A DNA stretch of 64,000 nucleotides from Candidatus Rokuibacteriota bacterium (GCA_003221515.1 QHSI01000101.1:2753-66752); one strand, 5' to 3'. Shown: positions 29,109-49,550, numbered from the stretch's first letter. Program-made: numbers and translations. The notes: generated by a model not told the origin, from the sequence alone.

Positions 29109-31379
29109 GTGATCGGCGAAGCGCATCCACGACTCGGCGGCGATCGGTTCGTCAGCGGCTCCGGCCGGTTCGTCGAGGACGTGCGCGTACCCGGGATGCT
29201 GCACGCGGTGGTGCTCCGCTCGCCTCACGCTCACGCCCGCCTGGTGTCGATCGACGCGAAGGCCGCGCGCGACCTGCCCGGCGTCCACGCCGTTCTCACC
29301 GGCGCGGACGTGCCGCCGGCCGCCGTCATTCCCAATCGCGTGCCGGCTCCCAAGGGCACCGAGCGCTATCTGCAACCGGCGATCGCGCGAGAGGTCGTCC
29401 GCTACGTGGGCGAGCCGGTGGCGCTGGTCGTCGCCGACGATCCGTACATCGCTCGCGACGCTCTCGACCGCATCGACGTCGTCTACGAGCCGCTCCCGGC
29501 CTGCGCATCGACCGCCGACGCGCTCGCGCCCGGGGCACCGCGGCTCTTCCAGAGCACGGACACGAACAACGTCGCCACGATCACGATGCGCGTGGGCGAC
29601 GCCGACGCGGCGCTGGCCGGCGCCGCGCTCGTGCTTCGCGAGCGCTTCGCCTACCCGCGCCAGACGGCGGCGGCCCTCGAGACGCGCGGGCTCGTCGCGG
29701 TGCCGCCCGACCCGCGCGGCGGCGAGCTCCACCTGATTGGCTCCACCAAGTGCATCCACATCAACCGGACCATCCTGGCGCCGATCTTCGGCATCCCGCT
29801 GGGCGCGCTCCGCCTCACCGAGGTGGACGTGGGCGGCGGCTTCGGCGTGCGGGGCGAGCTCTATCCCGAGGACATCCTGGTGCCGCTCGCCGCCATGAAG
29901 CTCGGGCGGCCCGTGCGCTGGATCGAGAGCCGCCGCGAGAATCTAATGTCCGCTAACCACGCGCGCGAGGTCGCCTACGAGATCGAGGTCGGTTTCGACG
30001 GCGAAGGCCGCATCGCCGGGATGCGCGCGGTGATCCACGCCGACATCGGCGCCTACGTGCGCACGGCCGCGCTCGTGCCCGCCGAATTCGGTGCCGCGCT
30101 GTTGCCGGGGCCGTATCGCGTCCCCAACTACGCGTGCGATCTCTGGTCGGTCGTGACCAACAAGACGCCGGCTGGCACGCTCCGCTCGCCCGGCCGCCCG
30201 GAGTGCAACTTCGTCCGCGAGCGCCTCGTGGACCGCGCGGCCGCGCGCCTCGGTCTGGACCCTGCGGAGATTCGCCGCCGCAACCTGATCCGGCCTGACG
30301 AGATGCCGTACGACTGCGGCACCAGGTCCTTCGGTGGCAGCACGGTCTACGACTCCGGCGACTTCCCCGCGCTGTTCGAGGAGCTGCTGCGCCGGCTGGA
30401 CTATAAGCGTACCCGCGCTGAGCAGGCCGCGTTGAACGCGCGGGCCGGCGGGCTACGTCGAGGCATCGGCTTCGCGATCTACGTCGAAAAAACCGGCCTC
30501 GGCCCATTCGAGACCACCCAGGTAGAGGCGAGGCCCGACGGCACGCTGATCGTGGACACGGGCGCCTCGTCGATGGGGCCAGGGCTCGAGACCGTGCTCG
30601 CCCAGATCCTGGGCGAGGCTCTCGGTCTCCCGACCGGGAAGTTTACGGTGCGTCACGCCGACACCGCGATGGTCGAGAGCGGCGTCGGCACCTACGGCTC
30701 GCGCGGCACCATCACCGCCGGCAACGCGGCGCACCTCGCGGCGGCGAAGCTGATCGCCGAGGCTCGCCAGCGGGCTGCGGCTCGCTGGGGCGTTCCGGAG
30801 GCCGAGGTGAAGTACGCGCGTGGCGTCGTCGAGGCGGGCGGCCGGCGGGTGACGCTGACGGAGCTGGCGGCGGAGCGTCGTCTCGCGGCGGGCGCGTCGT
30901 TCGAGGTGCCGAAGATCACCTACGCGGGCGGCGCCGCCGCCGTGGTTGCCGACGTCGACCCCGAGACCGGCGCCATCAAGCTCGTCCGTGTGGTCGTGGG
31001 CGCCGACGTCGGCCGTGCGGTGAACCCGGCGCTGGTCGATGGTCAGCTCGTGGGCGGCGTCGCCTTCGGCATCGGCAACACGCTGCTCGAGAGCCTCGTG
31101 TACGGCGCCGACGGCCAGCTGCAGTCGGGCACGTTCATGGACTACGCGCTGCCGATGGCTCCCGATGTCCCACTGGTCGACGGCTTCTATCAGGAAGTGC
31201 GAGCGACGACGAACCCGCTGGGGCTGCGCGGTCTCGGTGAGGTGGGTAACCCTGGGCTCGGCGGCGCCATCGCCAACGCGGTGTGCGACGCCCTGCCGTC
31301 AGGAAACCTAGGGATCACGGCGCTGCCCCTGACGCCGGCGCGCGTCTTCTTGGCCGGGCGCCCGGCGCACGCGCCCTGA
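29109..31379 (+). CDS. Xanthine dehydrogenase family molybdopterin-binding subunit (CoxL-like), 756 aa
   Basis: GTG start. 'VDVGGGFGVRGE', '...LRSPGRPECNFVRERLVDRAAARLGLDPAEIRRRNLI'. No adjacent FAD or Fe-S subunit genes. Confidence 0.9.
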   Translation: MIGEAHPRLGGDRFVSGSGRFVEDVRVPGMLHAVVLRSPHAHARLVSIDAKAARDLPGVHAVLTGADVPPAAVIPNRVPAPKGTERYLQPAIAREVVRYVGEPVALVVADDPYIARDALDRIDVVYEPLPACASTADALAPGAPRLFQSTDTNNVATITMRVGDADAALAGAALVLRERFAYPRQTAAALETRGLVAVPPDPRGGELHLIGSTKCIHINRTILAPIFGIPLGALRLTEVDVGGGFGVRGELYPEDILVPLAAMKLGRPVRWIESRRENLMSANHAREVAYEIEVGFDGEGRIAGMRAVIHADIGAYVRTAALVPAEFGAALLPGPYRVPNYACDLWSVVTNKTPAGTLRSPGRPECNFVRERLVDRAAARLGLDPAEIRRRNLIRPDEMPYDCGTRSFGGSTVYDSGDFPALFEELLRRLDYKRTRAEQAALNARAGGLRRGIGFAIYVEKTGLGPFETTQVEARPDGTLIVDTGASSMGPGLETVLAQILGEALGLPTGKFTVRHADTAMVESGVGTYGSRGTITAGNAAHLAAAKLIAEARQRAAARWGVPEAEVKYARGVVEAGGRRVTLTELAAERRLAAGASFEVPKITYAGGAAAVVADVDPETGAIKLVRVVVGADVGRAVNPALVDGQLVGGVAFGIGNTLLESLVYGADGQLQSGTFMDYALPMAPDVPLVDGFYQEVRATTNPLGLRGLGEVGNPGLGGAIANAVCDALPSGNLGITALPLTPARVFLAGRPAHAP

Positions 31380-31411
31380 TCTACGCCGAGACAAGTTCCG
31401 GGGCCCAGGCG

Positions 31412-31993
31412 ATGTCACGCGGCATGTACTTCATCACGCATCCCGATGTCGTGATCGACCCCGCTGTCCCTGTCCCCCAGTGGCCGCTCTCTCCGCGTGG
31501 CCGGAGCCGGATGCAGCGCCTGCTGAGCCAGGACTGGCTCCGTCAAGTCGAGGCGATCTATTGCAGTACCGAGCAGAAGGCCGTTGATGGCGCACTCATT
31601 CTGTCTGAGGCGACGGGTATTCCGTTTCACCAGGTCTCAGCGCTCGGGGAGAACGACCGCGTGGCCACTGGCTACCTGGCCAAGGCAGAGTTCGAAGTGA
31701 CCGTCGATGCTTTCTTCGCTCGTCCAAGCGCGAGCATCCGCGGGTGGGAGCGCGCTGAAGCCGCCCAAGCCCGTATCGTCGAGGCACTTTCATGGATTGC
31801 AGAGACCACGCCTGGCGCTGGGTCAATCGCGGTGGTGTCACACGGCGGCGTAGGAGCGCTCCTGCTGTGTTCCCTCAAAGGGCGGCCCATCTCACGAGAG
31901 GAAGAGCAGCCGGGGACATCCGGCGGACACTACTTCCTGTTCCAGGAACCAGAAGGTACGCTCATCCATGGCTGGAAGCCGATTGATGGATAG
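31412..31993 (+). CDS. Histidine phosphatase (phosphoglycerate-mutase-like) family protein, 193 aa
   Basis: 'MSRGMYFITHPDVVIDP' carries the RHG-type motif variant (ITHPD), with 'VVSHGGV' near the C-terminus. Confidence 0.65.
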   Translation: MSRGMYFITHPDVVIDPAVPVPQWPLSPRGRSRMQRLLSQDWLRQVEAIYCSTEQKAVDGALILSEATGIPFHQVSALGENDRVATGYLAKAEFEVTVDAFFARPSASIRGWERAEAAQARIVEALSWIAETTPGAGSIAVVSHGGVGALLLCSLKGRPISREEEQPGTSGGHYFLFQEPEGTLIHGWKPIDG

Positions 31994-32013: not shown

Positions 32014-34032
32014 TCAGGAACCGTAGAGGTGACACGCGACGTGATGTCCCGGCGCGTGCTCCTGCAGCACTGGCTCCGCCTCCGAGCACACCGGCAGCGC
32101 CTGCGGACACCGGGGATGAAATCGACACCCCGCCGGCGGATTGAACGCGCTCGGCACCTCACCCCTCAGAATGACCTCCTCGCGCACGTCGTCCGGATGC
32201 GACGGCAGCGCGTTGTTCAGGAGCACCTGCGTGTACGGATGGAGCGGGTTCGCGTAGAGCTCGTTCGCCGGCGCCGTCTCGACGAGCTTGCCCAGGTACA
32301 TCACGCCGATCCGCGTGCTCACGTACTTCACGACCGCCAGGTCGTGGGCGATGAAGAGATAGCTGACGCCGAGACGGTCCTGGATCTCTCGCAGCAGGTT
32401 CATCACCTGGGCGCGGATCGACACGTCGAGCGCCGAGACCGCCTCGTCGAGCAGGATGCACTCAGGATCCGTCGTCGGGGCCCGGGCGATCGCGACGCGC
32501 TGGCGTTGGCCTCCGGAGAGCTCGTGAGGGTAGTCGTCGGCGATCCGCGGCCGTAATCCCACCCGCGTGAGCGAGCCGGCGATGCGCTCGTCGATCTCCG
32601 CGCGCGTGAGGCCTGGCTGGTTCTGGGTGAGGGGCTCGCCCACCGTCGTGCGGATCGTCAGGCGTGGGTTCAACGAGCCGTACGGATCCTGGAACACGGC
32701 CTGCACCGCTCGTCGGTACTCGTTCGTCTCGTCACGGTCAAGCGAGTGAATGTCGCGGCCGCGGAACAGGACACCGCCGGCGGTCGGGCGCTCGAGGGAC
32801 AGAACGAGCCGCGCGGCGGTGGTCTTCCCGCATCCGCTCTCGCCGACGAGCCCGAGCGTCTCCCCGTGACGCAGGACGAAGTCGACGCCGTCGACCGCCT
32901 TCACGGTGCCCGCGGCGCGGGCGAAGATCGTCCCCCGCGCCAACGGGAAGTGCTTCGTCAGCGCACGCGCCTCGAGTACGACGTCGCCTCCGCCGTCCAG
33001 GTCGTCGCGAGCCGGATTCGCCATACTCGATAGCGACACCACGCGTCCATTCGGCTTCGAGGTGTCCTCTGCACGCAGGCATGCGACGAGATGCCCCTGC
33101 GCGATCGGCTCCAGCGCCGGCCGGGCCTCGACGCAGCGCGGCTCGGCTATCGGACATCGCGGCGCGAAGCTACAGCCCGGAGGCACCGCGGCCAGATCGG
33201 GCGGCTGGCCATCGATCGCCGTCAGCGGCTCGCGGCCGCGGCGCAGGGTGGGCAGACAGTTCAGCAGCCCGATCGTGTACGGGTGACGCGGCTCATTGAA
33301 GATGTCGCGCGTCTTGCCCATCTCGACGACGCCCCCGGCATACATGACGGCGACCCGGTCGCAGAGCTTGGCCACGATCGCCAGATCGTGCGTGACGAAG
33401 ACCAGCGCCAGGTTGGTCTCGCGCTGGATCTCCTTCAGGAGCCGCAGGTACTGCGCCTGGATCGTCACGTCCAGCGACGTCGTCGGCTCGTCGGCGATCA
33501 GGAGACTCGGCTGGCACGAGATCGCGATCGCGCCGGCGACGCGCTGGCGGATGCCGCCACTCATCTGATGGGGATAGGCGTGCACGCGCCGCTCGGGATC
33601 GCTGATCCTCACCTGCCGTAGGAGTTCGAGCACGCGCTGGTCGAGGGCGCGGCCGCGGAGGCCGCGGTGGAGCCAGAGCGTCTCCGCGATCTGCTCGCCG
33701 ACCGTCATGGCCGGATTCAGCGAGGCCATCGGGTCCTGCAGGATCATCGCGATCCGCGAGCCGCGGAGCTGGCGCATCTCCTCGGGGCTCTTGGCGAGCA
33801 GGCTCTGGCCGTCGAAGACGATGTCGCCCCCGACGATCTTGCCGCCGGGCTCGGGCACCAATCGCAAGATCGAGAGGCACGTCATCGACTTGCCGGAGCC
33901 GGACTCGCCGACGATCCCGAGGGTCTCGCCGCGCTGGACCGAAAACGTCGCGCCGTCGACCGCCTTCACGACCCCGCGGCGCGTATAGATGTAGGTCCGG
34001 AGATCCCGGACCTCGAGCAGATCCTCACCCAC
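32014..34032 (-). CDS. Fused tandem ABC ATP-binding protein (two DppD/DppF-type cassettes in one polypeptide, GsiA-like), 672 aa
   Basis: Two Walker A sites ('[11 protein letters not shown]', 'GESGCGKTT') and two signature/oligopeptide C-terminal domains in a single 672-aa ORF. Confidence 0.85.
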
Positions 34033-34098: not shown

Positions 34099-36204
34099 AT
34101 GGCCTACATCATCGGCATCGACACCGGCGGCACCTTCACGGACTGCATCGTGATGGACGCCGACGGAAAGCTCACGGCCGCCAAGGCGCCGTCCACCCCG
34201 GACGATTTTTCGGAAGGCGTCATGGAGTCGCTACGGGTGGCCGCCGAGCGGCTCGGGATCACGATCGAGGCGCTGCTGGGCGAGACCGCGCGGCTGGCGC
34301 TCGGCACCACGGTCGGCACGAACGCCATGCTCCAGCGGCGGGGCGCGCGTGTGGGGCTCATCACCACCAAGGGGCACCGCGACGTCATCCACATCATGCG
34401 GGGCGCCCGCGGCGTGCCCGGGCTCAACAACGTCCAGGTCCTGCACTTCCCCGAGAGCGGCAAGCCGGACCCGATCGTGCCCAAACCCTTCATCGCGGAG
34501 GTCAGCGAGCGTGTCGACTGCAAGGGCCAGGTGGTCGTCGAGCTGAACGAGGGCGAGGCCGAGCAGGCCATCAGGCGGCTCGTCGCCAAGGGCGTCGAGG
34601 CGATCGCGATCTGCTTTCTCTGGTCGTTCAAGGCGCCCGAGCACGAGCGGCGCGTGAAGCAGATGGTCGAGCGCCTGGCGCCCGGCGTGTTCGTCTGCTG
34701 CTCGGCCGATTTGATCCCGCGCTGGGGCGAGTACGAGCGCACGGTGGCGACGGTGCTCAACGCCTATCTGGGCCCGGTGATGTCGCGCTATCTCGACCGG
34801 CTCGAGTCGCGCGCCCAGGCCGCGGGCCTGCGATACCCGCTGCAGGTCATGCAGTGCGGCGGTGGTGTGATCCCGGCCGCCGAGTCGGCGCGGCGCGCGT
34901 TCCTCACGCTCGACTCCGGGCCGGTCGCCGGCGTGCTCGCCTCGCAGTACCTGGGCGGGATCATCGGCGCCAAGCACATCATCGCCACCGACATGGGCGG
35001 CACCTCGTTCGACGTCGGCCTGGTGTGGGACGGTGAGCCGATCGCCAGCTACCAGAGCGTCGTCCACCAGTACGAGTATTTCGTCCCGCGCATCGACATC
35101 CGCTCGGTCGGCAGCGGCGGGGGCTCGATCATCTGGATCGACGAGGTGAGCGCCACGATGCGGGTGGGTCCGATCTCGGCGGGCGCCAAGCCCGGCCCCG
35201 CGTGCTACGGGCGCGGCGGTACGCAGCCGACGGTGACCGACGCCGATCTGGTGCTCGGCTACATCGACCCCGACTACTTCCTGGGCGGCCGGCTGCGCCT
35301 CGATCTCGAGAAGGCCCGTGAGAGCCTGGGGCCGATCGCCACGCGACTCGGGATGGGCCTGGTCGAAACCGCCAGCGGCGCCGTGCGCGTGGTCGAGCAC
35401 CAGATGGCCGATCTGATCCGCAAGGTCACCGTGCAGAAGGGGTACGACCCGCGCGACTGCGTGGTGTTCGCCTACGGCGGCGCCGGGCCCGTGCACGCGG
35501 GTGTCTACGCGCGCGAGCTCGGCGCTCAAGGCGTCGTGGTGCCGCTGGGCGAGATCTGCTCGCTCTGGTCGGCGCTCGGGGCCGCCTCGGCGGACCTGCT
35601 CCACATCTACGAGGCCGTCGACATCCAGTCGAGCCCGTTCGACCCGGCGCGGGTCATGAGCCACTTCGTGGAGCTCGAGGCGCAGGGCCTGCGTCAGCTT
35701 GCCGCCGACGGCGTCGACATGAAGCTGGCGCGCCTGGCCCGCTCGGCGGACATCCGCTACAAGGGCCAGATCAACGAGGTCGAGGTGCCGGTGGCGCCCG
35801 GGCCGCTCGACGCCGCGGCGCTGGCGTCGCTGATCGGCGACTTCCACCGGCGCTACGAGACGGTCTACGGCAAGGGCGCCGGGTTTCACGAGGCGCGTCT
35901 GGAGATCGTCACCTACCGCGTGCGTGCCTCGGCGGTCAGCGCCAAGCCGCGCATCGTCGCCGCGCGCGAGGCCGACCGCGAGCCCGCGCGGGAGGCTCGC
36001 GCGGGCACGCGGCCCGTCTACTGGGCCGAGCTCGGCGACTTCGACGCGACGCCCGTGTTCTGGGGCCACCGGCTGGCGCCGAGCAACGTGATCCCGGGTC
36101 CCGCCATCATTCAGGTACCCGACACGACGATCGTCGTCCACCCGTGGGAGACTGCGCGCATGGACGCCTACGGCAACGTGCTGATCGATCTGGGAGGCCG
36201 CTGA
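34099..36204 (+). CDS. Hydantoinase A / N-methylhydantoinase A / acetone-carboxylase-beta-type ATPase subunit (HyuA family), 701 aa
   Basis: 'MAYIIGIDTGGTFTDCIVMDADGKLTAAKAPSTP' is the HyuA N-terminus. 701 aa. The upstream part of the 845-aa track ORF is an artefact. Confidence 0.9.
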   Translation: MAYIIGIDTGGTFTDCIVMDADGKLTAAKAPSTPDDFSEGVMESLRVAAERLGITIEALLGETARLALGTTVGTNAMLQRRGARVGLITTKGHRDVIHIMRGARGVPGLNNVQVLHFPESGKPDPIVPKPFIAEVSERVDCKGQVVVELNEGEAEQAIRRLVAKGVEAIAICFLWSFKAPEHERRVKQMVERLAPGVFVCCSADLIPRWGEYERTVATVLNAYLGPVMSRYLDRLESRAQAAGLRYPLQVMQCGGGVIPAAESARRAFLTLDSGPVAGVLASQYLGGIIGAKHIIATDMGGTSFDVGLVWDGEPIASYQSVVHQYEYFVPRIDIRSVGSGGGSIIWIDEVSATMRVGPISAGAKPGPACYGRGGTQPTVTDADLVLGYIDPDYFLGGRLRLDLEKARESLGPIATRLGMGLVETASGAVRVVEHQMADLIRKVTVQKGYDPRDCVVFAYGGAGPVHAGVYARELGAQGVVVPLGEICSLWSALGAASADLLHIYEAVDIQSSPFDPARVMSHFVELEAQGLRQLAADGVDMKLARLARSADIRYKGQINEVEVPVAPGPLDAAALASLIGDFHRRYETVYGKGAGFHEARLEIVTYRVRASAVSAKPRIVAAREADREPAREARAGTRPVYWAELGDFDATPVFWGHRLAPSNVIPGPAIIQVPDTTIVVHPWETARMDAYGNVLIDLGGR

Positions 36205-36205
36205 G

Positions 36206-38509
36206 ATGGCGGATCGCCCGCATCCGAGCTCGACGACCTCCGGCCCGCACGACGGGACGACCTTCTCCTACATTCCCGGCGACACGCTCGCGATCCATCC
36301 GAGCCTCACGCTGCACCGGGAATGGACCGACAAGATCGACCCGATCACCTACGAGGTCATCCGCCACAACCTCTGGAACATCAACGAAGAGCTGGGGATG
36401 ACGATCCAGCGCATCTCGGGCTCGCCGGTGGCGATGTACGCCTTCGACCTCAACTCCTCGATCTTCACCGAGGACGGCGAGTTCATCTATTACGGCCCAT
36501 ATCAGCTATACATGTCGGGCGTTTCGGACGTGCAGGTTAAGTGGACGCTCGAGTACCGCTCGCAGAACCCGGGCATCTTCGAGGACGACATGTTCCTCTC
36601 GAACGATCCCTGGGTTGGCGCCGCCCATCAGATGGACGTCACGCTGCTCACCCCGGTGTTCTGGGACGGCAAGCTCTTCTGCTGGATCACCAACGTCCTG
36701 CACCAGTACGATGTCGGTGGGATCACGCCCGGCAGCTTCTGCCCGAACGCGCGAGACTCCTTCGACGAGGGCATCCTGATCCCGCCGGTGAAGATCGTCG
36801 AGCGCGGGGAGCTCAGGCGCGACATCGAGGGCGTCTACCTGCGTGCCTCGCGCAAGCCCTACCTGGTGGCGCTCGACCTGCGAGCCCAGATCGCCGGCAA
36901 CAACACCGCCAAGCGCCGCATCCTCGGCCTGATCCGCCGCTACGGCCCGGAAGTCGTCAAGGGCGTGATGCGGAAGATCATCGACAACGCCGAGCAGGCG
37001 TTCCTCCAGAAGCTCGCGAAGCTGCCCGACGGGGTGTGGCGCGAGCGGAGCTACGTCGAGGTCGCGTACGTCGGCGACCGCAAGACCTACCAGGTCATGC
37101 TCAACATGCAGAAGAAGGGCGACCGGCTCGTCTTCGACAACGCCGGCACCGCGCCCCAGGTGGGCGCGATCAACACGACCTATTCGGGCTGGCGCGGCTC
37201 GATCATGACCGCGATCAACGAGCTGCTCTGCTGGGACCAGCTCTACGCGATCGGGGGCGCCCTGCGCCACATCGAGTTCCAGCCCTCGCTCGGCGCGTTC
37301 ACGTCGGCGGCTCATCCGGCCTCGGTGTCGACGGCGCCCGTGCAGGCCATGGAGATCTCGCTCTATCCCGCGTACAACACGATCTCGAAGCTGCTGTCGG
37401 GCGATCCCGAGCTCAAGCGCGACGCGATGTGCATCGGCGGCACCAGCCAGTTCCCGCTGACGGTGTTCCGCGGCATCGACCAGTGGGGCGAGAAGTTCGG
37501 CTATCTCCTGCTCGACCCCATGGTGGGCGCGATCGGCGCGTTTTCGTTCCGCGACGGCATCGCCACTGGCGGCCAGGTGCGCAGCCCGATCTGCCGCATC
37601 GGCAACGTCGAGCACAACGAGCAGAGCTTCCCGCTGCTCGTGCTCTACCGGCGCGAGAACACCGACTCCGGCGGCGCCGGCAAGTTCCGGGGCGGCAACT
37701 CGGCGGCCGTGAGCTTCATCCCCCACGGCACCGACGGGATCGTCCAGGACACCGAGTCGTCGGGCGCCGCGATCCCGACGGCGCCCGGCCTCATGGGCGG
37801 CTATCCCGCGAACACCAACTACTACCGGTTCAAGCGCGGGACCGACATCCAGCAGTGGCTGGCCCGCCGCGAGATCCCCGGCGACGTCGGCGAGGTCAGT
37901 GGCGAGGACGTGCTCCTGCAACTCCGCCAGATCGACATCCAGCAGGGGCCTGATGACGTCTATGAAGTCGCGTTCGCCGCCGGCGCCGGCTACGGCGACC
38001 CGATCGAGCGCGATCCGGAGGCGGTCCGCAAGGATGTCTACCTCGGCGACGTCTCGGCGCACGCGGCGCGCGAGCTCTTTCGCGTGGTGCTCGCGGGCGA
38101 GGAGGAAGATCTGCGCGTCGACGTGACGGCGACGGCGGCGCTGCGCCGCCAGGCGGTGGTCGAGCGGCTCGGCCGCGAGCCCAAGCCCTACGCGGGCCCG
38201 CGGCTTCCGCTGCTCCGGCATCTGACCGACTGCCTGGATCTGGTGAAGAGCGACGGGCGCCCCTGGCTCGGCTGCGCGCGCTGCGGCCAGCCACTCTGCG
38301 ACGCGCACGAGAACTACAAGCTCCACTGCCATCGCATCGACCGGCCGATCCAGGCGGCCAACACGCTCATCGGTGATCCGCGCCGGTTCATCGACGACGA
38401 CGTGCAGTTCCGCCAGTTCTGCTGCCCGGCGTGCGGGGGTCTGGTGGAAAATGAAGTGTGCCGGACGGCGGACCCGGTGCTCCGCGACATCGAGCTGGAC
38501 GTCGAGTAG
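36206..38509 (+). CDS. Hydantoinase B / acetone-carboxylase-alpha-like subunit with C-terminal Cys-rich zinc ribbon (HyuB family), 767 aa
   Basis: HyuB core. The C-terminus 'CARCGQPLCDAHENYKLHCHR...FCCPACGG' resembles the Zn-binding tail of acetone/acetophenone carboxylase alpha subunits. Starts 2 nt after hyuA. Confidence 0.85.
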   Translation: MADRPHPSSTTSGPHDGTTFSYIPGDTLAIHPSLTLHREWTDKIDPITYEVIRHNLWNINEELGMTIQRISGSPVAMYAFDLNSSIFTEDGEFIYYGPYQLYMSGVSDVQVKWTLEYRSQNPGIFEDDMFLSNDPWVGAAHQMDVTLLTPVFWDGKLFCWITNVLHQYDVGGITPGSFCPNARDSFDEGILIPPVKIVERGELRRDIEGVYLRASRKPYLVALDLRAQIAGNNTAKRRILGLIRRYGPEVVKGVMRKIIDNAEQAFLQKLAKLPDGVWRERSYVEVAYVGDRKTYQVMLNMQKKGDRLVFDNAGTAPQVGAINTTYSGWRGSIMTAINELLCWDQLYAIGGALRHIEFQPSLGAFTSAAHPASVSTAPVQAMEISLYPAYNTISKLLSGDPELKRDAMCIGGTSQFPLTVFRGIDQWGEKFGYLLLDPMVGAIGAFSFRDGIATGGQVRSPICRIGNVEHNEQSFPLLVLYRRENTDSGGAGKFRGGNSAAVSFIPHGTDGIVQDTESSGAAIPTAPGLMGGYPANTNYYRFKRGTDIQQWLARREIPGDVGEVSGEDVLLQLRQIDIQQGPDDVYEVAFAAGAGYGDPIERDPEAVRKDVYLGDVSAHAARELFRVVLAGEEEDLRVDVTATAALRRQAVVERLGREPKPYAGPRLPLLRHLTDCLDLVKSDGRPWLGCARCGQPLCDAHENYKLHCHRIDRPIQAANTLIGDPRRFIDDDVQFRQFCCPACGGLVENEVCRTADPVLRDIELDVE

Positions 38510-38530
38510 GGTAGGTTAAAGGAGAGACCG

Positions 38531-39991
38531 ATGCCAGCGCGCACAGGCAGCGAATATCTCAAGGGGTTGCAGGCGCAAGAGCGCGAGGTCTGGCTGCGGG
38601 GCGAGCGGGTCAAGGACGTGACCACGCACCCCGGGCTGCGCAACGGCGCGCTCGCGATCGCCTCGCTCTACGACATGCAGCACGACCCGCAGCTTCGCGA
38701 CGAGATGACCTACGTCTCGCCCACCAGCGGCGATCGCGTGGGGCTGTCGTTCATCAACCCGCACACCCGCGAAGACGTCGAGCGGCGCGGCCAGATGATG
38801 CTCAACTGGGCGCGCACGACGTGCGGGATGATGGGACGCTCACCCGACTTCATGAACGTCACGTTCGCGGCGTGGGGCGCGGCGGCCGACTACTTTGCCC
38901 GCGGCCGGCCCCAGTTCGGCCAGAACATCAAGCGCTACTACGAGTACATCCGCGAGAACGACCTGACGCTGACCCACTCGTTGATCAACCTGCAGCGGAG
39001 CCGCGACGTCTCCGGCATGTTCAACCTGAAGGAAGGCACGGCGCTGCGGATCGTCCGCGAGACCGACGCCGGCGTCGTGGTGAGCGGCGCCCGGGTCCTC
39101 GCCACGCTCGGACCGCTGTCGGACGAGATCGCCGTGTACTCCCCGCGCCTGGCCCGGCACACGGATCCCCACAGCCCCTTCGCGCTCAACTTCGCGATCC
39201 CCTGCGGCACGCCCGGGCTCAAGTTCCTCTGCCGCGAGAGCTTCGACCTCGGGCGCTCACACTTCGACCATCCGCTGGCCTCGCGCTTCGAGGAGATGGA
39301 CTGCGTCGTGTTCTTCGACGACGTGCTGGTGCCCTGGGAGCGCGTGTTCGTGCTGGGCGACGTCGAGATCCTCAACGACACCGCGTTCGCCACCAACTCG
39401 ATGACCCACACCGCGCACCAGGGCGCCGCCAAGAACCTGGCCAAGTGCGAGTTCGTGCTCGGCGTGGCGCTCCTGATCACCGAGACGCTCGGCAACGCCC
39501 ACCTGCCCCACGCCGAGGAGCGCATCGGCGAGCTGATCATGTACACCGAGCTCATGAAGGCCTGCATGCGCGCCTCCGAGGCCGACGCCAAGCTCAACCA
39601 GTGGGGCGTGATGTGCCCCGCGGCGATGCCGGCCGAGGTCACGCGCAACCTGTTCATGACCGCCTATCCGCGGATGGTCGAGATCCTCCAGCTCCTCGGG
39701 TCGAGCAGCTTCATGATCGTTCCGAGCGAGGCCGACTTCGCGGGGCCGCTGCAGCCGGAGATCGAGCAGTACCTGGCGACCGACAGCGCCAGCGCGCGCG
39801 ATCGGGTGAAGCTCTTCCGCCTGGCGTGGGACATCGCCGGGAGCTCCTTCGGCAGCCGCCAGGTGCTCTACGAGCGCTTCTTCGCCAGCGACCCGCTGAC
39901 GCGCGCGCGCGTCCTGAAAACGATCTTCCCCACGAAGGAAGTGACGGACCGGGTGCGCCAGTTCCTGGCGCGGAGCGACGACACGGCCTGA
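38531..39991 (+). CDS. 4-hydroxyphenylacetate 3-monooxygenase oxygenase-component family (HpaB-like, group-D flavin monooxygenase), 486 aa
   Basis: 'MPARTGSEYLKGLQAQEREVWLRGERVKDVTTHPGLRNGALAIASLYDMQHDP' is the HpaB N-terminus. Ribosome-binding site AAAGGAGAGACCG. Confidence 0.85.
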   Translation: MPARTGSEYLKGLQAQEREVWLRGERVKDVTTHPGLRNGALAIASLYDMQHDPQLRDEMTYVSPTSGDRVGLSFINPHTREDVERRGQMMLNWARTTCGMMGRSPDFMNVTFAAWGAAADYFARGRPQFGQNIKRYYEYIRENDLTLTHSLINLQRSRDVSGMFNLKEGTALRIVRETDAGVVVSGARVLATLGPLSDEIAVYSPRLARHTDPHSPFALNFAIPCGTPGLKFLCRESFDLGRSHFDHPLASRFEEMDCVVFFDDVLVPWERVFVLGDVEILNDTAFATNSMTHTAHQGAAKNLAKCEFVLGVALLITETLGNAHLPHAEERIGELIMYTELMKACMRASEADAKLNQWGVMCPAAMPAEVTRNLFMTAYPRMVEILQLLGSSSFMIVPSEADFAGPLQPEIEQYLATDSASARDRVKLFRLAWDIAGSSFGSRQVLYERFFASDPLTRARVLKTIFPTKEVTDRVRQFLARSDDTA

Positions 39992-40018
39992 TCGCCGACT
40001 CTGCGGCGGCGGGCTCTC

Positions 40019-40420
40019 TTGATCTCTCAATCGGTGGATAACCTGGTGGCAACGGTCAGATATCTGGTCGCCGACGTTGAGCGTTCCTTGGCCTTCTACA
40101 CCACGGCGCTCGGATTCAAGCTGGATCAGAGCATGGCTCCGGCTTTCGCGCGTGTCTCCAAGAATGATCTGACTCTTTGGCTCGCCGGTCCACAGAGCTC
40201 CGCGGCTCGGCCGATGCCTGACGGGCGACGTCCCGAGCCCGGCGGATGGAATCGCTTCGTCGTCGAGATGGAGGATCTTCCGTCACGCGTGGCTGAAATG
40301 AAGCGCGCCGGCCTGCGTTTCCGTAATGATGTGGTCGTCGGCCCCGGCGGCAAGCAGGTCTTGCTCGAGGATCCGGATGGTAATCTTGTCGAACTCTTCG
40401 AGGCTGCGCGATCACACTGA
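40019..40420 (+). CDS. VOC-family (glyoxalase/bleomycin-resistance/dioxygenase) single-domain protein, about 125-133 aa
   Basis: 'VATVRYLVADVERSLAFYTTALGFKLDQ...WNRFVVEMEDL...LLEDPDGNLVELFE'. Start is either TTG 40019 or GTG around 40046. Confidence 0.75.
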   Translation: MISQSVDNLVATVRYLVADVERSLAFYTTALGFKLDQSMAPAFARVSKNDLTLWLAGPQSSAARPMPDGRRPEPGGWNRFVVEMEDLPSRVAEMKRAGLRFRNDVVVGPGGKQVLLEDPDGNLVELFEAARSH

Positions 40421-40438: not shown

Positions 40439-41172
40439 CTAGACCTGCCGCAGCTTCGGGTCGAGGCGGTCGCGGACCCAGTCGCCGAGGATGTTCAGCG
40501 AGAGCACGGTGACGAGGATCGCGATGCCCGGGAGGATCGAGACCCACCACGCCTGCTCGATCAGCCCGCGCCCGTCGGCCACCATCACACCCCACGACGG
40601 CGTGGGCGGTGGGATGCCCACGCCGAGGAAGCTCAGCGCCGCCTCGAGCACGATCACGTAGCCGACGTGTAGCGTCGCCAGCACCAGGATCGAGGGCGCC
40701 AGGTTGGGGACGATGTGGCGGAACATGATCGTCCAGCTCGAGCACCCAGCGAGATGTCGGCCAGCCGCATCAGGAGCGTCTCGGTCCAGCCGCCGAGGAA
40801 GCCGGCCAGGAGGCCGATGAGGCTGCCCGCCGCGCCGGTCAGCGTGATGCCGACCACCGACACCGCCAGCGAGATGCGGGCGCCGTAGAGCAGCCGGCTC
40901 AGGGTGTCGCGCCCGTGGCGGTCGGTGCCGAGCACGTGGCCGGGCTTGGCGCCTTCGAGGCCGATCGGCGGCGCCAGCCGCTCACCGAGGGAACCCTCGA
41001 CCGGCGAGTGTGGCGCCAGCAGCGGCGCCAGCACGGCGCACAGCACGAGCAAGACGACGATGGCCAGCGGGACGGCCGGCGGCCACCGTCGGTCGTGACG
41101 ACGCGCGACGGCCGCGTCGTCAGCGGCGAGTGGGGCGCCTGGCGTCGCGTGCGTAGCGGAAGGCACGCTCAT
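40439..41172 (-). pseudogene. DppC/OppC-type ABC permease gene disrupted by an internal out-of-frame deletion of about 165 bp
   Basis: The N-terminal 145 codons are in one frame ('...[15 protein letters not shown]', ending near 40737). The C-terminal 95 codons are in another frame ('[31 protein letters not shown]...DPKLRQV', 40439-40726). The intact paralog (17952-18875) has about 55 extra residues between the equivalent points ('SLPTILIAVVLVAV...FVALAVVAGRSSTW'). Confidence 0.7.
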
Positions 41173-42089
41173 CGCGAGTACCTGATCCTGGGATTCAGAT
41201 ACGCGTAGAGCACATCGACCAGCAGGTTCACGCCGATGTACATCGCCGAGAGGAAGAGCACGACGGTCTGGACGATCGGATAGTCACGCGAGTCGACGGC
41301 CTCGATCACCAGCAGGCCGAGGCCCGGCCAGCCGAACACGGTCTCCACGATGATCGAGCCGTTCAGGAGCGCCACGAACAGGAGCGCGGCGAACGTCACC
41401 ACCGGCAGCGCGGCGTTCTTGAACGCGTGCTTCCAGATCACCCGCCGCTCCGACAGCCCCTTGATGCGCGCGAGCTTGACGTACTCGCTGCCGAGGACGT
41501 CGAGCATCGACGAGCGCGTCAACCGCATGAGGCCGGCGACCGCGAACCAGCCGAGCGTGATGCCCGGCAAGAGGACGTGCATCGGCGTGCCGCGGCCGGA
41601 AGTCGGCAGGAGTCGCAGCAGCACGCCGAAGATGAGCACCAGCACGAGCCCGAGCCAGAACGGCGGCACCGCCTGGCCGAGCGCGGCGAAGGCCCGAGCG
41701 CCGTAGTCGAGCGCGCTGCCGCGTCGGACCGCCGAGTAGACGCCGACCGGGAGCGCGACGACGATCACGACGAGCACGGCGAGGCCGCCGAGCTCGAGCG
41801 TGGCCCCGTAGCGCTCGGCGATCAGGTCGAGGGCCGGGCGTCGGAACCGCACGGACCGGCCGAAGTCTCCCTGGAGCGCCTGGGTCGCGAACTTCCAGTA
41901 CTGGACGTGCCACGGGCGGTCGAGGCCGAGGTGCGCGCGCATCAGCTCGATGTCGGCCTTCGACGCCTCGGCGGGCATCATGATCTGGATGGGATCGCCG
42001 GAGAGGCGCACGAGCGCGAAGACCACGACGGACACCACGACCATGGAGACGACGGACTGGATCAGGCGTCCGACGATGTAGCGTTGCAC
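41169..42089 (-). CDS. ABC transporter permease (DppB/OppB-like), 306 aa
   Basis: 'MQRYIVGRLIQSVVSMVVV...' permease-B architecture. Overlaps the downstream permease-C remnant by 4 nt. Confidence 0.85.
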   Translation of the reverse strand: MQRYIVGRLIQSVVSMVVVSVVVFALVRLSGDPIQIMMPAEASKADIELMRAHLGLDRPWHVQYWKFATQALQGDFGRSVRFRRPALDLIAERYGATLELGGLAVLVVIVVALPVGVYSAVRRGSALDYGARAFAALGQAVPPFWLGLVLVLIFGVLLRLLPTSGRGTPMHVLLPGITLGWFAVAGLMRLTRSSMLDVLGSEYVKLARIKGLSERRVIWKHAFKNAALPVVTFAALLFVALLNGSIIVETVFGWPGLGLLVIEAVDSRDYPIVQTVVLFLSAMYIGVNLLVDVLYAYLNPRIRYSR

Positions 42090-42103: not shown

Positions 42104-43267
42104 TCAGGCGCGTCCCCAGAGCTGCTTCGTCGCGATCCGCGCGCCGTCGCTCAGCGCCTTCAGCTTCGCCCAGACCACGCTCGGATGGATCTCGGTCGAT
42201 CCGGCGAACGTCGCGAAGCCGCAGTCGGACCCGGCGATGACGTTCTCGCGCCCGACGACCTTGGCGAACTTCACGATCCGCTCGGCCACCAGCTCTGGAT
42301 GCTCGACCAGATTGGTCGACTGGGTGATCGCGCCCGGGACGAGCAGCGCGCCTTCCGGGAGCTTGACGCCCTCCCACACGCGCCACTCGTGCTCGTGGCG
42401 CGGATTGGCGGCCTCGAACGAGTAGGCGCCGGCGCGGACCTTCAGCATGATGTCCACGACGTGCTTCAGCTCCATGTCGTGGACGCGCGGCCCCATGTTG
42501 ATCCCGTAGCAGGTGTGGAACCGGACCCGCTCGCGCGGCAGCCCGCGGAGCGCGTGGTTCAGCGCCTCCACGCGCACCTCGGCCCACCGGCGGCACTCGT
42601 CCACGGTCGAGCGCGGGTCCATGATGTAGTAGGTCATCAGGCGCGGATCGTCGATCTGCACCAGGAACCCGGCGTCGACGATCGCCTTGTACTCCTCCCG
42701 CATGGCGTCGGCGATCGCGAACAGGTATTCCTCGTCCGTCTTGTAGTAGGTGTTCTCCTGGCGACCCTCGACGTTCGAGGGCGAGATGGCGGGGATGAAC
42801 GCCTCCTCGACCCCGACACCGGCGAGCGCGGCCTTGAGGTTCTCGATGTCCGTCTTCACCTGCGCGTGGCCGTGGTAGGCGATCGGCCCGGTGCACGCGA
42901 ACGTCCGGGCTCGGGTGTTGGCGCTCTGGGGCACGGTGGCCGCGTAGAACTCGGGGAACGAGATGTACTCCTTCGATCCCGACCACGGCAGCCCGGCGGC
43001 CTTGGCGCTCGGCTCGAACCCGCTCAGGCGGTCGGTCACGTAGGTCACGAAGCTCGGCTTGCCCATCTCACCGTCGTCGATCACGTCCACGCCGAGCTCG
43101 ACCTGCCGACGCACGATCTCGCCGACCGCGCTCTTCACCCGGCGCGCGTACGCGTCGCGGTCGTAGGGACGCCCGTCGGCCAGGGCGCGCACCATCTCCA
43201 GCAGGTCGGCCGGCCGCGGCAGGCTGCCCGCGTGCGTCGTGAGGATCCGCTCGCGGCTGCGCTTCAT
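42104..43267 (-). CDS. Cobalamin-independent methionine synthase (MetE C-terminal domain)-like / methionine synthase II family protein, about 388 aa
   Basis: 'MKRSRERILTTHAGSLPRPADLLEMVRALADGR...' typical of the stand-alone MetE-like family. The upstream 108 codons of the track ORF lack homology and overlap the binding-protein fragment. Confidence 0.7.
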   Translation of the reverse strand: MKRSRERILTTHAGSLPRPADLLEMVRALADGRPYDRDAYARRVKSAVGEIVRRQVELGVDVIDDGEMGKPSFVTYVTDRLSGFEPSAKAAGLPWSGSKEYISFPEFYAATVPQSANTRARTFACTGPIAYHGHAQVKTDIENLKAALAGVGVEEAFIPAISPSNVEGRQENTYYKTDEEYLFAIADAMREEYKAIVDAGFLVQIDDPRLMTYYIMDPRSTVDECRRWAEVRVEALNHALRGLPRERVRFHTCYGINMGPRVHDMELKHVVDIMLKVRAGAYSFEAANPRHEHEWRVWEGVKLPEGALLVPGAITQSTNLVEHPELVAERIVKFAKVVGRENVIAGSDCGFATFAGSTEIHPSVVWAKLKALSDGARIATKQLWGRA

Positions 43268-43275: not shown

Positions 43276-43728
43276 TCAGCCCGCCGGGCTCACGTACTCG
43301 TAGTTGGTCTCGAGCGGCACGTACGCGAGCGATTGCCAGCCGCCCACCTTCTTGCTCAGCGCCCACGTGACGGACTTCACGCCGAGCATCACGCCGTAGT
43401 AGCACTTCACGCCCGAGCGGAGCTTGAACGTCCACGTCTTGAGCTCGTTCGACGGCTTCCATTCCGTGGCCAGCCCCGGGCGGTACTCGAAGGTCTTCGG
43501 GTCGCGCGTGATCAGCGAATCGTAGACGCAGTCCCACAGGGGCTTCTCGCCCTGCACGCCGCGCCAGGCGAACGGCGTCTCGGTGCCCCACTGACCGACC
43601 GCGACGACGAGGCGCTCGTTGGGGCCGGCGGTGGCGCGAGCGGGGCGAACGACCGGCGCGCCCATGGCGGCGACGGCCGCGGTGCCCGCCCGCCGCAAGA
43701 AACTTCGGCGATCGATCGAACGAGCCAT
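43276..43728 (-). pseudogene. Truncated family-5 ABC substrate-binding protein gene: Tat signal plus the first about 120 mature residues only
   Basis: 'MARSIDRRSFLRRAGTAAVAAMGAP' is a twin-arginine signal (ribosome-binding site GGAGGA). 'PGLATEWKPSNELKTWTFKLRSGVK' SBP_bac_5 motif. The ORF then ends (about 150 aa against about 530 expected), 9 nt before the next gene. Confidence 0.65.
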
Positions 43729-43858: not shown

Positions 43859-44422
43859 TCAGTCGTGGCCAGCAGGACCGGTCGGCTGCCCCGAGAGTGG
43901 CTTCAGGCGAAGCAGAAACTGTTGGAGCGGCGTGTCGTGGGTCAACGGAATTTCGCAGTGAGCAATTGGCCGGGCGGGGTTCCCCTGGACCATGGTCATG
44001 GGAGGGACGGAACGGGTGACAATACTCCCCGCGGCGACCACCGCGCCACGGCCGAGCGTCACGTTCGGCAAAATGATGCAGCCCGGGCCGACAAACACTT
44101 CATCTTCGATCCGGACTGAGATGCGATCCTTCATTTGGTCCGGAGATGGCGGATCCCCTTCGAAGTGGGCAATGATCGTTGTGCGCATCCCAATGGCCAC
44201 GTTGTTTCCCAGCTGTACCCATTCAGGGTAGGCAGTCTCAATGAGCACGTCGGTCCCGATATACACGGGAGTCCCCATTTTTACGCCCCGCCATCGGTGC
44301 AGCCTGACCCGCAGAGTGGCCTGCCCTGGCGCGTACAGGGCCAGCACCTGCAGCAAACGGTTCTTGACGCCCCGTAGCCGGGGCTCGGGGGGAAATCGGG
44401 GCCTCTTGTCTCTGGATACCAC
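43859..44422 (-). CDS. Hexapeptide-repeat (left-handed beta-helix) acyl/acetyltransferase, 187 aa
   Basis: '...IGTDVLIETAYPEWVQLGNNVAIGMRTTIIAHFEG...VFVGPGCIILPNVTLGRGAVVAAGSIVTRSVPPMTMVQGNPARPI' shows LbH repeats of the WcaF/MAT type. Confidence 0.8.
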   Translation of the reverse strand: MVSRDKRPRFPPEPRLRGVKNRLLQVLALYAPGQATLRVRLHRWRGVKMGTPVYIGTDVLIETAYPEWVQLGNNVAIGMRTTIIAHFEGDPPSPDQMKDRISVRIEDEVFVGPGCIILPNVTLGRGAVVAAGSIVTRSVPPMTMVQGNPARPIAHCEIPLTHDTPLQQFLLRLKPLSGQPTGPAGHD

Positions 44423-44499
44423 CCGGCCTGCCTCCGAAGGGGTGAAAACCCACGTGGATTTTACCAGTGCCTCACTGGCACCGGCGTGAATTCTCGGAA

Positions 44500-44588
44500 A
44501 TCACCGGCCGGAGGTTCTGGAACCAGTAGGCTAGCTTGGGCTACACTTTTCGATACACGGATGATAGTCACACACACTGTGGACATTT
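44500..44588. promoter_or_regulatory. AT-enriched divergent intergenic region between the acyltransferase (-) and LLM (+) genes; candidate divergent promoters/operator
   Basis: Locally low GC ('ACTTTTCGATACACGGATGATAGTCACACACACTGTGGACATTTGTGAAC') in an otherwise about 68% GC sequence. Contains the 12-bp palindrome GGTTCTGGAACC (about 44513-44524). Confidence 0.4.
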
Positions 44589-47200: not shown

Positions 47201-47203
47201 GAG

Positions 47204-47455
47204 ATGGCCAGGAATATGCGGTTGTGCAACCGACTCACCCAGTTCTTTCGCGACAAGCTCTACCTTGAGGTTCCGTCACCCGACACGGACCTGATCGAGG
47301 CGGGCCTGCTCGATTCTCTGAATTTCGCTCAGTTGATGGTCCACATCGAACAGGAATTCGCCATGCACATCTCTCCGGAGGACCTCGAGTTCGATCACTT
47401 TCGCACCATTGCGAAGATCGCAGCCTTTGTCGCAACCAGGTGGCTGGGCTCTTGA
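47204..47455 (+). CDS. Acyl/peptidyl carrier protein (DltC-like), 83 aa
   Basis: Phosphopantetheine attachment motif 'GLLDSLNFAQL'. Immediately follows the adenylation gene. Confidence 0.8.
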   Translation: MARNMRLCNRLTQFFRDKLYLEVPSPDTDLIEAGLLDSLNFAQLMVHIEQEFAMHISPEDLEFDHFRTIAKIAAFVATRWLGS

Positions 47456-49538: not shown

Positions 49539-49550
49539 GGGCTTCGGACG

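Follow-up and report, generated by a model that had tools for sequence, protein, structure and literature searches.

What does an ATP-dependent hydantoinase/ketone-carboxylase family enzyme do when its genes stand directly beside the gene of a flavin-dependent phenol hydroxylase? The question is raised by positions 34,099 to 40,420 of a 64,000-nucleotide stretch of Candidatus Rokuibacteriota DNA (GCA_003221515.1, QHSI01000101.1:2753-66752), called the window below, in which hyuA and hyuB are followed by hpaB and by a gene for a single-domain VOC protein. A first-pass annotation had read these genes as one four-gene operon for an ATP-dependent ring-opening or carboxylation step coupled to hydroxylation. 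Here, we show that HyuB carries a gamma subunit of the acetone-carboxylase type as a C-terminal fusion, that the enzyme is placed by sequence comparison in a clade of its own, and that the genes entered their site as a cassette. We then weigh whether the enzyme and the hydroxylase share a pathway, and which chemistry the pair would carry out.

Results

Gene layout and source of the window

The window has a G+C content of about 69%, and its coding frames, with a third-codon-position G+C (GC3) above 0.9, are easily recognised. All four open reading frames (ORFs) of the first-pass annotation were confirmed at the same coordinates, each on the plus strand and with domain matches. The ATP-binding alpha subunit of a hydantoinase/ketone-carboxylase family enzyme is encoded by hyuA (34099..36204; 701 residues; Pfam Hydant_A_N, Hydantoinase_A and Hydant_A_C). 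The product of hyuB (36206-38509; 767 residues; Hydantoinase_B plus Acetone_carb_G) divides into a metal-binding beta-subunit core (residues 1-672, 36206..38221; Hydantoinase_B, PF02538, over residues 45-599) and a fused gamma-subunit domain with a Cys4 zinc ribbon (residues 673-767, 38222..38509; PF08882). Then come hpaB (38531..39991; 486 residues; HpaB_N and HpaB), for the oxygenase of a two-component flavin-dependent phenol hydroxylase of a distinct subfamily, and, with a TTG start, the VOC gene (40019..40420; 133 residues; Glyoxalase PF00903 at E 8e-12, and Ble-like_N). The spacers measure 1 nucleotide between hyuA and hyuB (TGA-G-ATG), 21 between hyuB and hpaB, where an AGGAGA Shine-Dalgarno sequence lies 6 nucleotides before the hpaB ATG, and 27 between hpaB and the VOC gene. 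The codon composition of hyuA, hyuB and hpaB is host-like (GC3 0.93-0.95). A scan of 31-43.8 kb for promoter-like sites gave none and is uninformative, the host's promoters being unknown; terminator-like sites in the same interval occur at chance level, with none between hyuB and hpaB.

Three independent JGI soil-metagenome contigs encode an identical HyuB, and on two of them hpaB and the VOC gene accompany it; the block is therefore no assembly artefact. The closest genome is the metagenome-assembled genome (MAG) Candidatus Rokuibacteriota AR31, whose HyuB is 97% identical, and the source of the window is a soil population of Rokubacteria (Methylomirabilota).

A gamma subunit fused to HyuB

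Residues 673-767 of HyuB match PF08882 (Acetone_carb_G, E 3e-13) and the NCBIfam ApcB model. The two CxxC pairs of this region, C690/C693 and C740/C743, are invariant in 41 homologues and correspond to the Cys4 zinc site described for the gamma subunits of acetophenone carboxylase (Apc) and acetone carboxylase (Acx) (Weidenweber et al., PMC5214803). In an AlphaFold model of HyuB (pLDDT 71.6 and pTM 0.78, with pLDDT of about 87-95 in the gamma part), the core matches Apc beta, Acx alpha, N-methylhydantoinase (NMHase) and CapB (fold matches 5l9w_A, 5m45_A and 6yra_B; Foldseek TMt 0.73 for Apc beta and 0.76 for CapB), while the modelled C-terminal domain on its own matches the gamma subunits of Acx (5m45_C) and Apc (5l9w_C; 33% identity, root-mean-square deviation 3.5 Å, 96 columns). 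Haloarchaeal relatives (43-46% identity) encode gamma separately, under the annotation 'acetone carboxylase subunit gamma', and in Natronosalvus halobius (43% identity) hyuA, hyuB and gamma are three separate genes in that order, so that the window enzyme is to be read as alpha plus beta::gamma in the gene order of Acx. The tail of HyuB is a complete acetone-carboxylase gamma subunit fused to beta. The first-pass annotation had declared a carboxylase gamma subunit absent and called the Cys-rich tail 'alpha-type'; the PF08882 match, the invariant Cys4 site and the model match overturn both statements.

A separate clade within the superfamily

The superfamily is defined by an ASKHA alpha subunit and a beta subunit of Hydantoinase_B fold with an Asp/Glu-His-Asp-His site (Weidenweber et al. 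2017), and the window enzyme has both. HyuA carries the ASKHA motifs GIDTGGT (residue 6), TDMGGTS (residue 297) and GAKPGP (residue 362), together with the interface motif SERVDCKG at 136, which is of the alpha type; in HyuB the fold is joined by an intact Asp-His-Asp-His tetrad (D81, H141, D144 and H166) that is invariant in the family. Both subunits score far under every NCBIfam equivalog cut-off, the best NCBIfam match of HyuA being CapA at 559 bits for a cut-off of 1000. Among PDB entries HyuA scores highest with NMHase (416 bits), followed by Apc alpha (ApcC, 388), CapA (387) and Acx (330), and HyuB with ApcD (5l9w_A; 184 bits, 27.3% identity over 600 positions), followed by Acx (138), NMHase (133) and CapB (131).

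A neighbour-joining tree of 605 columns was built with references reconstructed from pairwise PDB alignments and with ApcD, CapB and NMHase as its three outgroups, Acx being omitted. In all of 100 bootstraps (100/100) one clade unites the window, other Rokubacteria, Burkholderiales, the split haloarchaeal form and the fused forms of Rhodococcus opacus and Mycobacterium branderi. The clade stands apart from ApcD (26% identity), NMHase (24.5%) and CapB (24.3%), with a sister branch that three outgroups do not show; the hydrolases CapB and NMHase pair together, away from it. ApcD is the best characterised match of HyuB, at 26-27% identity, and lies outside the clade. The clade has 2151 matches at E <= 1e-20 among 8000 candidates scored, nearly all of the top 120 having the fused architecture, and it counts 422 genome loci, the best 80 of which are all from MAGs. 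Its members are widespread among the uncultured Rokubacteria and Burkholderiales of soil, with others in Rhodococcus, Mycobacterium and haloarchaea.

By these sequence comparisons the enzyme sits in a separate, large and uncharacterised clade. The phylogeny that the first-pass annotation had proposed against the carboxylases thus separates HyuB from ApcD and CapB, with acetone carboxylase outside the tree, and its statement that the gene combination resembles none of the characterised hydantoin, oxoproline, acetone or acetophenone systems holds, also for caprolactam, the best characterised relatives being only 24-27% identical. In the literature on hydantoinases with HpaB, with Rokubacteria or with a fused gamma, we did not find the arrangement described. 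Few hydantoinase/ketone-carboxylase enzymes have been characterised; this large and well-conserved clade, with its fused gamma, is a defined biochemical target. In two bacterial phyla its genes recur next to those of phenol hydroxylases, and Rhodococcus opacus S8 and Mycobacterium branderi provide culturable members.

The HpaB subfamily

HpaB scores 545.5 bits with TIGR02309, for a cut-off of 480.2, and aligns over its full length with the Thermus thermophilus enzyme TtHpaB (2yyg, 450 bits). Arg100 and His142 of TtHpaB are retained as R103 and H149. Tyr104 is replaced by F107, and the carboxylate-binding pair Ser197/Thr198 by P205/R206, a pattern seen in all 121 sequences of a tightly conserved subfamily (120 homologues, 81-97% identical). 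Although it passes TIGR02309, HpaB probably does not act on 4-hydroxyphenylacetate, judging from these residues. The window ORFs scanned include no Flavin_Reduct gene, as the first-pass annotation had noted in reporting no flavin reductase partner, no hpaC, and no hpaD-I gene that reaches its family cut-off; the window offers two candidates only, a distant nitroreductase-family gene (1705-2292) and an HpaG-like FAA hydrolase that matches weakly (51009-51944).

These results bear on the most conventional interpretation, in which the locus would encode an N-methylhydantoinase or 5-oxoprolinase next to a genuine 4-hydroxyphenylacetate 3-hydroxylase. It agrees with the names that JGI gives to homologues ('N-methylhydantoinase B' and '4-hydroxyphenylacetate 3-monooxygenase') and with the passage of HpaB over the equivalog cut-off of TIGR02309. 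Nevertheless, HyuA and HyuB are far under the corresponding NCBIfam cut-offs and only 24-27% identical to characterised enzymes, their gamma domain is foreign to hydantoinases and oxoprolinases, HpaB lacks both Tyr104 and the Ser197/Thr198 pair, and neither an hpaC gene nor any hpaD-I gene reaching its family cut-off was found among the scanned ORFs. We consider this interpretation very improbable.

At 82-84% identity, HpaB homologues have surroundings of other kinds, with luciferase-like monooxygenases, Opp-type or TRAP transporters, or DUF5996 as neighbours. In three of these loci (L084, L090 and L092), which belong to the same F107/S204-P205-R206 subfamily at 82-84% identity, luciferase-like monooxygenases lie on both sides, with an alpha/beta hydrolase, a dienelactone hydrolase and an NDH2-like flavoprotein nearby and an Opp-type transporter adjoining, forming a conserved, uncharacterised cluster that differs from that of the window. 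The idea that hpaB was the ancestral partner of a peptide-type transporter was rejected, the Opp-type transporter proteins beside homologues being only 25-47% identical to those of the window.

Conservation of the gene pairing

Loci were searched by tblastn with the window proteins (83 loci), and genes were called and clustered in 80 related genome loci; the neighbourhood counts given here cover the best 80 of the 422 genome loci, and related MAGs among them are non-independent observations. The hyuA-hyuB pair is present almost everywhere among the 83 loci. The hpaB gene lies beside it only in contigs identical to the window, in AR31 and in the related locus L089 (HpaB 97% identical). The single operon block of four genes described in the first-pass annotation is therefore not conserved: in the neighbourhood search that it had suggested, hyuA-hyuB proved widespread, hpaB stood next to the pair in a narrow sublineage of Rokubacteria only, namely in the lineage of the window, L089 and AR31, and the VOC gene was seen only in the population of the window. 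Within these limits three sublineages retain the three-gene cassette between changing flanks; in AR31 flanking genes have been lost.

A second kind of pairing was found elsewhere in the clade. An oxygenase of the ACAD fold, frequently alongside a VOC gene, is present in 19 of the 69 hyuB::gamma loci, almost all Burkholderiales-type MAGs. It is similar to HsaA (306 bits) and to the C2-type p-hydroxyphenylacetate hydroxylase (247 bits); such HsaA-like enzymes are phenol ortho-hydroxylases from a family other than that of HpaB. The HsaA-like start overlaps the hyuB stop (ATGA) in two loci (L063 and L077), and a third (L062) has the order hyuA, hyuB::gamma, VOC (141 residues, with a His-His-Glu triad) and HsaA-like gene, with an 11-nucleotide spacer and an ATGATG overlap. 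A 168-residue VOC protein occurs in 12 loci and a true maleylacetoacetate isomerase (MaiA) in 6. The strongest support for a connection is that the combination of an ATP-dependent alpha/beta::gamma enzyme with a two-component phenol hydroxylase, with or without a VOC protein, arose at least three times from non-orthologous parts. Since HsaA-like pairings occur in 19 of 69 loci, some with stop/start overlaps, a functional link between the ATP-dependent enzyme and the phenol hydroxylase is plausible by analogy, and so is a pathway shared by HyuAB and HpaB in the window. The first-pass proposal of a ring-opening or carboxylation step coupled to hydroxylation gains from the Burkholderiales loci as far as this link is concerned; conservation of all four genes did not stand, and a role for the VOC protein is improbable.

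Chance has to be considered as well. The hyuAB::gamma genes may be a self-contained two-gene module and hpaB part of an unrelated pathway, the neighbours having come together in a plastic region without any common substrate. The narrow distribution of the hpaB adjacency suits this explanation, as do the variable contexts of hyuAB::gamma in other Rokubacteria, where toxin-antitoxin or other genes often separate hyuA from hyuB, the diverse surroundings of the HpaB homologues at 82-84% identity, the variable slot after hpaB and the several indels that distinguish the region from close relatives. It fits poorly with the common strand, the 21-nucleotide spacer and the Shine-Dalgarno sequence, with the persistence of the three-gene unit in AR31 despite the loss of its flanks, and with the non-orthologous phenol hydroxylase pairings in 19 of 69 loci, some with overlapping stop and start codons. 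We regard fortuitous adjacency as a serious contender that is nonetheless somewhat unlikely.

The hyuA-hyuB junction has been repeatedly invaded in Rokubacteria relatives (L004 9278-9983; L094 8087-8679; L096 7015-8984; L095 2650-8670). The insert is a 727-bp two-ORF segment in AR31, and VapBC (PIN), BrnTA, AbiEii or Fic modules are found in others; in L095 about 6.5 kb with MM_CoA_mutase, amidase and AtzH-like genes separates hyuA from hyuB, and L094 and L096 have no hyuA within 9 kb upstream of hyuB.

The VOC gene

The VOC gene has a GC3 of 0.67, against 0.93-0.95 for hyuA, hyuB and hpaB, and is confined to the population of the window; its slot is taken by a weak PNPOx-like gene in L089 and is empty in AR31. 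In a shallow alignment of four sequences at 20-25% identity, the window protein has T13/R14 and N78/R79 where the 168-residue, 141-residue and L095 VOC proteins have His, and only E125 is kept. VOC extradiol dioxygenases and glyoxalase I-type enzymes are marked by a His-His-Glu (or His/Glu x4) metal site in paired beta-alpha-beta-beta-beta modules, and two of the three His-His-Glu ligands are thus missing. The gene is probably a recently acquired passenger outside the pathway; its foreign GC3, the two lost ligands and the variable slot speak against the place in the pathway block that the first-pass annotation had given it. As an equivalent of the VOC proteins of Burkholderiales hyuAB::gamma loci it was likewise rejected, the similarity being at the level of the superfamily only, with two metal ligands missing.

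Insertion of the cassette and decay of a transporter

Three relatives (L101, L102 and L103) have an empty site with the co-directional order SBP_bac_5, SBP_bac_5, Meth_synt_2, (TctC), OppB, OppC, Amidohydro_2 and DppDF. Their outer neighbours are those of the window, namely a convergent Mo-hydroxylase (molybdenum hydroxylase) large subunit, Peptidase_S15, Amidohydro_3 and a CMD-family gene. In blastn comparison with the empty site, OppC ends at window position 40440 and DppDF starts at 34032, and the 1.1-kb Amidohydro_2 gene of the relatives has no counterpart in the window. These positions and the missing gene show that a 6.4-kb cassette replaced Amidohydro_2 between oppC and dppDF, in inverted orientation; the transporter then decayed.

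The fused DppD/F-type ABC ATPase on one side of the cassette (32014..34032, minus strand; 672 residues; two ABC_tran and two oligo_HPY domains) is 95.5% identical to that of L089 and 85-86% identical to its orthologue in L101-L103. On the other side lies an oppC pseudogene (40439..41172, minus strand), of which tblastn with a paralogue and with L089 OppC recovers residues 1-142 and 198-301 in two frames; about 55 internal residues are deleted and a frameshift lies near 40750, with the natural stop retained at about 40439. Beyond it are an intact oppB permease gene (41169..42089, minus strand; 306 residues; BPD_transp_1; 98.7% to L089 OppB), a MetE-like Meth_synt_2 gene (42104..43267, minus strand; 387 residues; PF01717), which holds the same place in the transporter operon of L089 and L101-L103, and a remnant of an SBP_bac_5 gene (43279..43728, minus strand), of which residues 1-112 and 504-544 of the 544-residue L089 protein align. 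Relatives thus give a cassette-replacement series: the empty site; L089, with the cassette and an intact transporter; the window, where about 55 OppC residues (with the frameshift) and about 390 residues of the substrate-binding protein (SBP) are lost; and AR31, where DppDF, OppB, OppC and SBP are all gone. The insertion proposed in the first-pass annotation is confirmed and sharpened by the empty sites; its description of a block on the opposite strand inside a degraded peptide-transporter locus was apt, although OppC itself was left uncut, with its natural stop.

The large subunit of an XDH/CODH-type Mo-hydroxylase (29109..31379, plus strand; Ald_Xan_dh_C, MoCoBD_1 and MoCoBD_2) is the conserved outer neighbour of the transporter locus and in AR31 lies directly 5' of hyuA. 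It belongs to the host locus, outside the cassette, since relatives with an empty site already have it in convergent orientation to dppDF. At the cassette ends we found only chance-level repeats and a duplication internal to DppDF, with no mobile-element signature and no integrase; 28-50 kb contains no tRNA and no Rfam family.

Several features of the surroundings are recorded for themselves. Meth_synt_2 is embedded in a peptide-type transporter operon, between SBP and permease genes (L101 2776-3945; L103 3864-5033; window 42104-43267), and the empty-site operon additionally holds Amidohydro_2 between oppC and dppDF. A second variable slot flanks the cassette between the Mo-hydroxylase gene and dppDF, where the window has a histidine-phosphatase-family ORF (31283-31993; GC3 0.70), L089 has FMN_dh and a 156-residue ORF, and relatives with an empty site have about 125 bp; AR31, where dppDF is lost, has the Mo-hydroxylase gene directly abutting hyuA. 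Adjoining the decayed SBP gene, a segment of low G+C (43859-48384; 62-63%) that is absent from AR31 encodes a hexapeptide acyltransferase (minus strand), a luciferase-like monooxygenase, an AMP-binding enzyme and a formyltransferase. GC3 was measured for two of these genes, those of the luciferase-like monooxygenase and the AMP-binding enzyme, and is 0.79; the segment looks like a small island that was gained separately. The window holds two more peptide-type ABC transporter loci (15397-20815 and 62262-63999), the first intact (SBP, OppB, OppC, DppD and DppF). With such transporters abundant in this genome, adjacency to one is weak evidence by itself.

Other genes of the window

A complete urate-to-allantoate gene set (7086-15295) lies 20 kb upstream of the cassette. 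It comprises genes for an HIU hydrolase (7086-7445), an OHCU decarboxylase (7442-7966), a PuuD-type urate oxidase (7969-9183), a Mo-hydroxylase large subunit (9201-11522), a class-V aminotransferase (11561-12775) and a bona fide PuuE allantoinase (12880-13881; 481 bits for a cut-off of 425), and is followed after PuuE by a UbiD-family decarboxylase gene (13883-15295). A purine link of the hyuAB enzymes through PuuE was considered and rejected, the gene beside hyuB in Burkholderiales being a distant paralogue (111 bits for the same cut-off of 425). Four paralogues of the XDH/CODH-family Mo-hydroxylase large subunit are present in the 64 kb (2-1708, 9201-11522, 29109-31379 and 51973-54258), none with an FAD or 2Fe-2S subunit gene identified next to it. 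Two adjacent genes at 48684-49895, a pair kept in AR31, code for an FTR1-family iron permease and a cupredoxin-like protein.

Discussion

Taken as a whole, the locus is best explained, if only tentatively, by an inserted cassette for the carboxylation of a phenolic ketone, to which HpaB is coupled. In this family, alpha phosphorylates a carbonyl or enol oxygen and the beta metal site carboxylates or hydrolyses (PMC5214803, PMC8453981). In the window, HyuA would use ATP to phosphorylate the carbonyl or enol oxygen of the substrate, and the activated intermediate would move to the Asp-His-Asp-His metal site of beta, where it would be carboxylated; the substrate class that we favour is a phenolic or aromatic methyl ketone, which would yield a beta-keto acid. 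HpaB may be translated from the same transcript, with reduced flavin coming from a reductase encoded elsewhere, and would ortho-hydroxylate the phenolic ring of the substrate or product to give a catechol for later ring cleavage. We count the 21-nucleotide hyuB-hpaB spacer with its Shine-Dalgarno sequence, and the lack of a terminator-like site there, in favour of this coupling.

For the step itself, carboxylation is weakly favoured over lactam hydrolysis, the former having roughly an even chance and the latter being rather doubtful. The preference is founded on the gamma domain and on the beta core, since only the carboxylases Acx and Apc, and never the hydrolases, are known to have gamma subunits, the Acx order being alpha-beta-gamma (PMC5214803), and since the core of HyuB is Apc-like in length and has its best score with Apc. 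It is also founded on the gene contexts of three cultured relatives. On plasmid pCP105 of R. opacus the order is TetR, SDR, hyuA, hyuB::gamma, SDR and acyl-CoA ligase; in N. halobius the hyuA-hyuB-gamma genes lie beside thiolase, ACAD and MaoC genes; and in M. branderi the pair is found amid P450 genes and a gene of the 2,4'-dihydroxyacetophenone dioxygenase family. The pCP105 order parallels the Ped-Apc-Bal arrangement of Aromatoleum, of an alcohol dehydrogenase, a ketone carboxylase and a beta-keto-acid CoA ligase. Two further resemblances were examined and dismissed: the small cupin encoded 5' of hyuA in some Burkholderiales has no significant similarity to the M. branderi dioxygenase, and the ACAD of N. 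halobius is an ordinary acyl-CoA dehydrogenase and not an HsaA-like oxygenase.

A number of observations weigh against carboxylation coupled to HpaB. The clade has no characterised member, and the best scores of alpha are with lactamases (CapA at 559 bits in NCBIfam, NMHase at 416 bits in the PDB). Gamma is regarded as structural and lies a long way from the active sites (PMC5214803), which makes it weak evidence for carboxylation, and at the first metal position there is Asp, shared with Apc and the lactamases, instead of the gating Glu of Acx. Those cultured relatives whose contexts are suggestive reach only 36-46% identity, and neither a beta-keto-acid CoA ligase nor a thiolase gene lies beside the window cassette. 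As to the coupling, hpaB is missing from the vicinity in most of the clade's Rokubacteria members, sequences of the HpaB subfamily at 82-84% identity have unrelated contexts, and the counts come from the best 80 of 422 loci, with related and hence non-independent MAGs.

Some of the same observations suit a different chemistry, in which HyuA/HyuB::gamma would be an ATP-dependent lactamase. A hydroxylase (HpaB in the window, an HsaA-like enzyme or a molybdenum hydroxylase elsewhere) would oxidise a heteroaromatic ring beside the nitrogen to give a lactam tautomer, the carbonyl of which HyuAB would phosphorylate before hydrolysing the ring. Alpha is closest to lactamases by score, and neighbours in related loci suit amide chemistry: genes for Mo-hydroxylase subunits lie within 10 kb (<=10 kb) of hyuB::gamma in about 10 loci, some adjoining hyuA, a PuuE-like hydrolase gene follows directly 3' of hyuB in 8, and amidase, AtzH-like and urease genes are found at the Rokubacteria locus L095. 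There are precedents in the skatole-induced skt cluster of Rhodococcus ruber R1, where a flavin monooxygenase accompanies the caprolactamase-like SktIJ (bioRxiv 10.1101/2024.12.29.630347), and in the iaa lactamases, which are paired with a hydroxylase. However, gamma is absent from every characterised hydrolase of the family, the core of HyuB exceeds hydrolase betas by about 80 residues and scores best with Apc beta, CapB and NMHase group apart from the clade, HpaB and HsaA-type enzymes typically require a phenolic hydroxyl group, and the Mo-hydroxylase of the window lineage is part of the host locus and not of the cassette. On balance, a lactamase that works with a hydroxylase in this way is unlikely. 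Were it true, gamma would be no marker of carboxylases, correcting a rule that is used in annotation.

If the enzyme is a carboxylase, it would add an ATP-driven, CO2-fixing step to the aerobic aromatic catabolism of abundant soil bacteria. One may speculate further that the clade as a whole carboxylates phenolic aryl ketones such as the lignin-derived 4-hydroxyacetophenone and acetovanillone, in a biotin-independent and ATP-dependent manner and with interchangeable hydroxylases of the HpaB or HsaA type. This generalisation is a long shot. If true, it would establish a third aerobic route of aryl-ketone activation, beside the kinase/biotin-carboxylase route and Baeyer-Villiger oxidation. Nothing here shows chemistry beyond the known range of the family.

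How does the window compare with known systems? TtHpaB (2YYG) and the window HpaB are alike in full-length homology and in the two kept residues, and differ in the three replaced ones; the window also has no adjacent HpaC or homoprotocatechuate genes. The skt cluster likewise places a two-component flavin monooxygenase beside an alpha/beta enzyme of the family, and the iaa genes for anaerobic indoleacetate degradation in Aromatoleum combine a molybdenum hydroxylase with a family alpha/beta enzyme in (hetero)aromatic catabolism. Unlike the window enzyme, SktIJ and IaaCE are caprolactamase-like and have no gamma, the oxygenase SktG is of the StyA type and not HpaB, and the functions of SktIJ are inferred only. 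The lactamases CapAB (6YRA), N-methylhydantoinase (7HK5) and 5-oxoprolinase offer the nearest alpha subunits (CapA 559 bits, NMHase 416 bits). They differ in having no gamma and a beta of about 580 residues at about 24% identity, whereas the window enzyme has a gamma domain preceded by a beta core of about 660 residues and so departs from the two-subunit hydantoinase plan.

The two carboxylases are closer in plan. Acx of Xanthobacter autotrophicus (5M45, 5SVB) shares with the window the set and order of alpha, beta and gamma, the fold of gamma, and three metal ligands, its H150, D153 and H175 being H141, D144 and H166 of HyuB. Its gating Glu89 is Asp81 in the window, its beta-type subunit is about 100 residues longer than the window core and scores 138 bits in two stretches, below Apc, and, unlike in Acx, beta and gamma are fused in the window. 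Apc of Aromatoleum aromaticum EbN1 (5L9W) requires an alpha' paralogue and an epsilon subunit, with the order alpha'-gamma-alpha-beta-(epsilon), whereas the window, like nearly all related loci, has one HyuA homologue and hence no alpha', carries gamma at the C-terminus of beta, and has no epsilon recognisable with the libraries used. In several respects Apc is like the window enzyme: it is the best match for beta by sequence and by fold, its first metal position is Asp, its gamma carries a Cys4 zinc ribbon, and its chemistry is the ATP-dependent, biotin-independent activation of a carbonyl.

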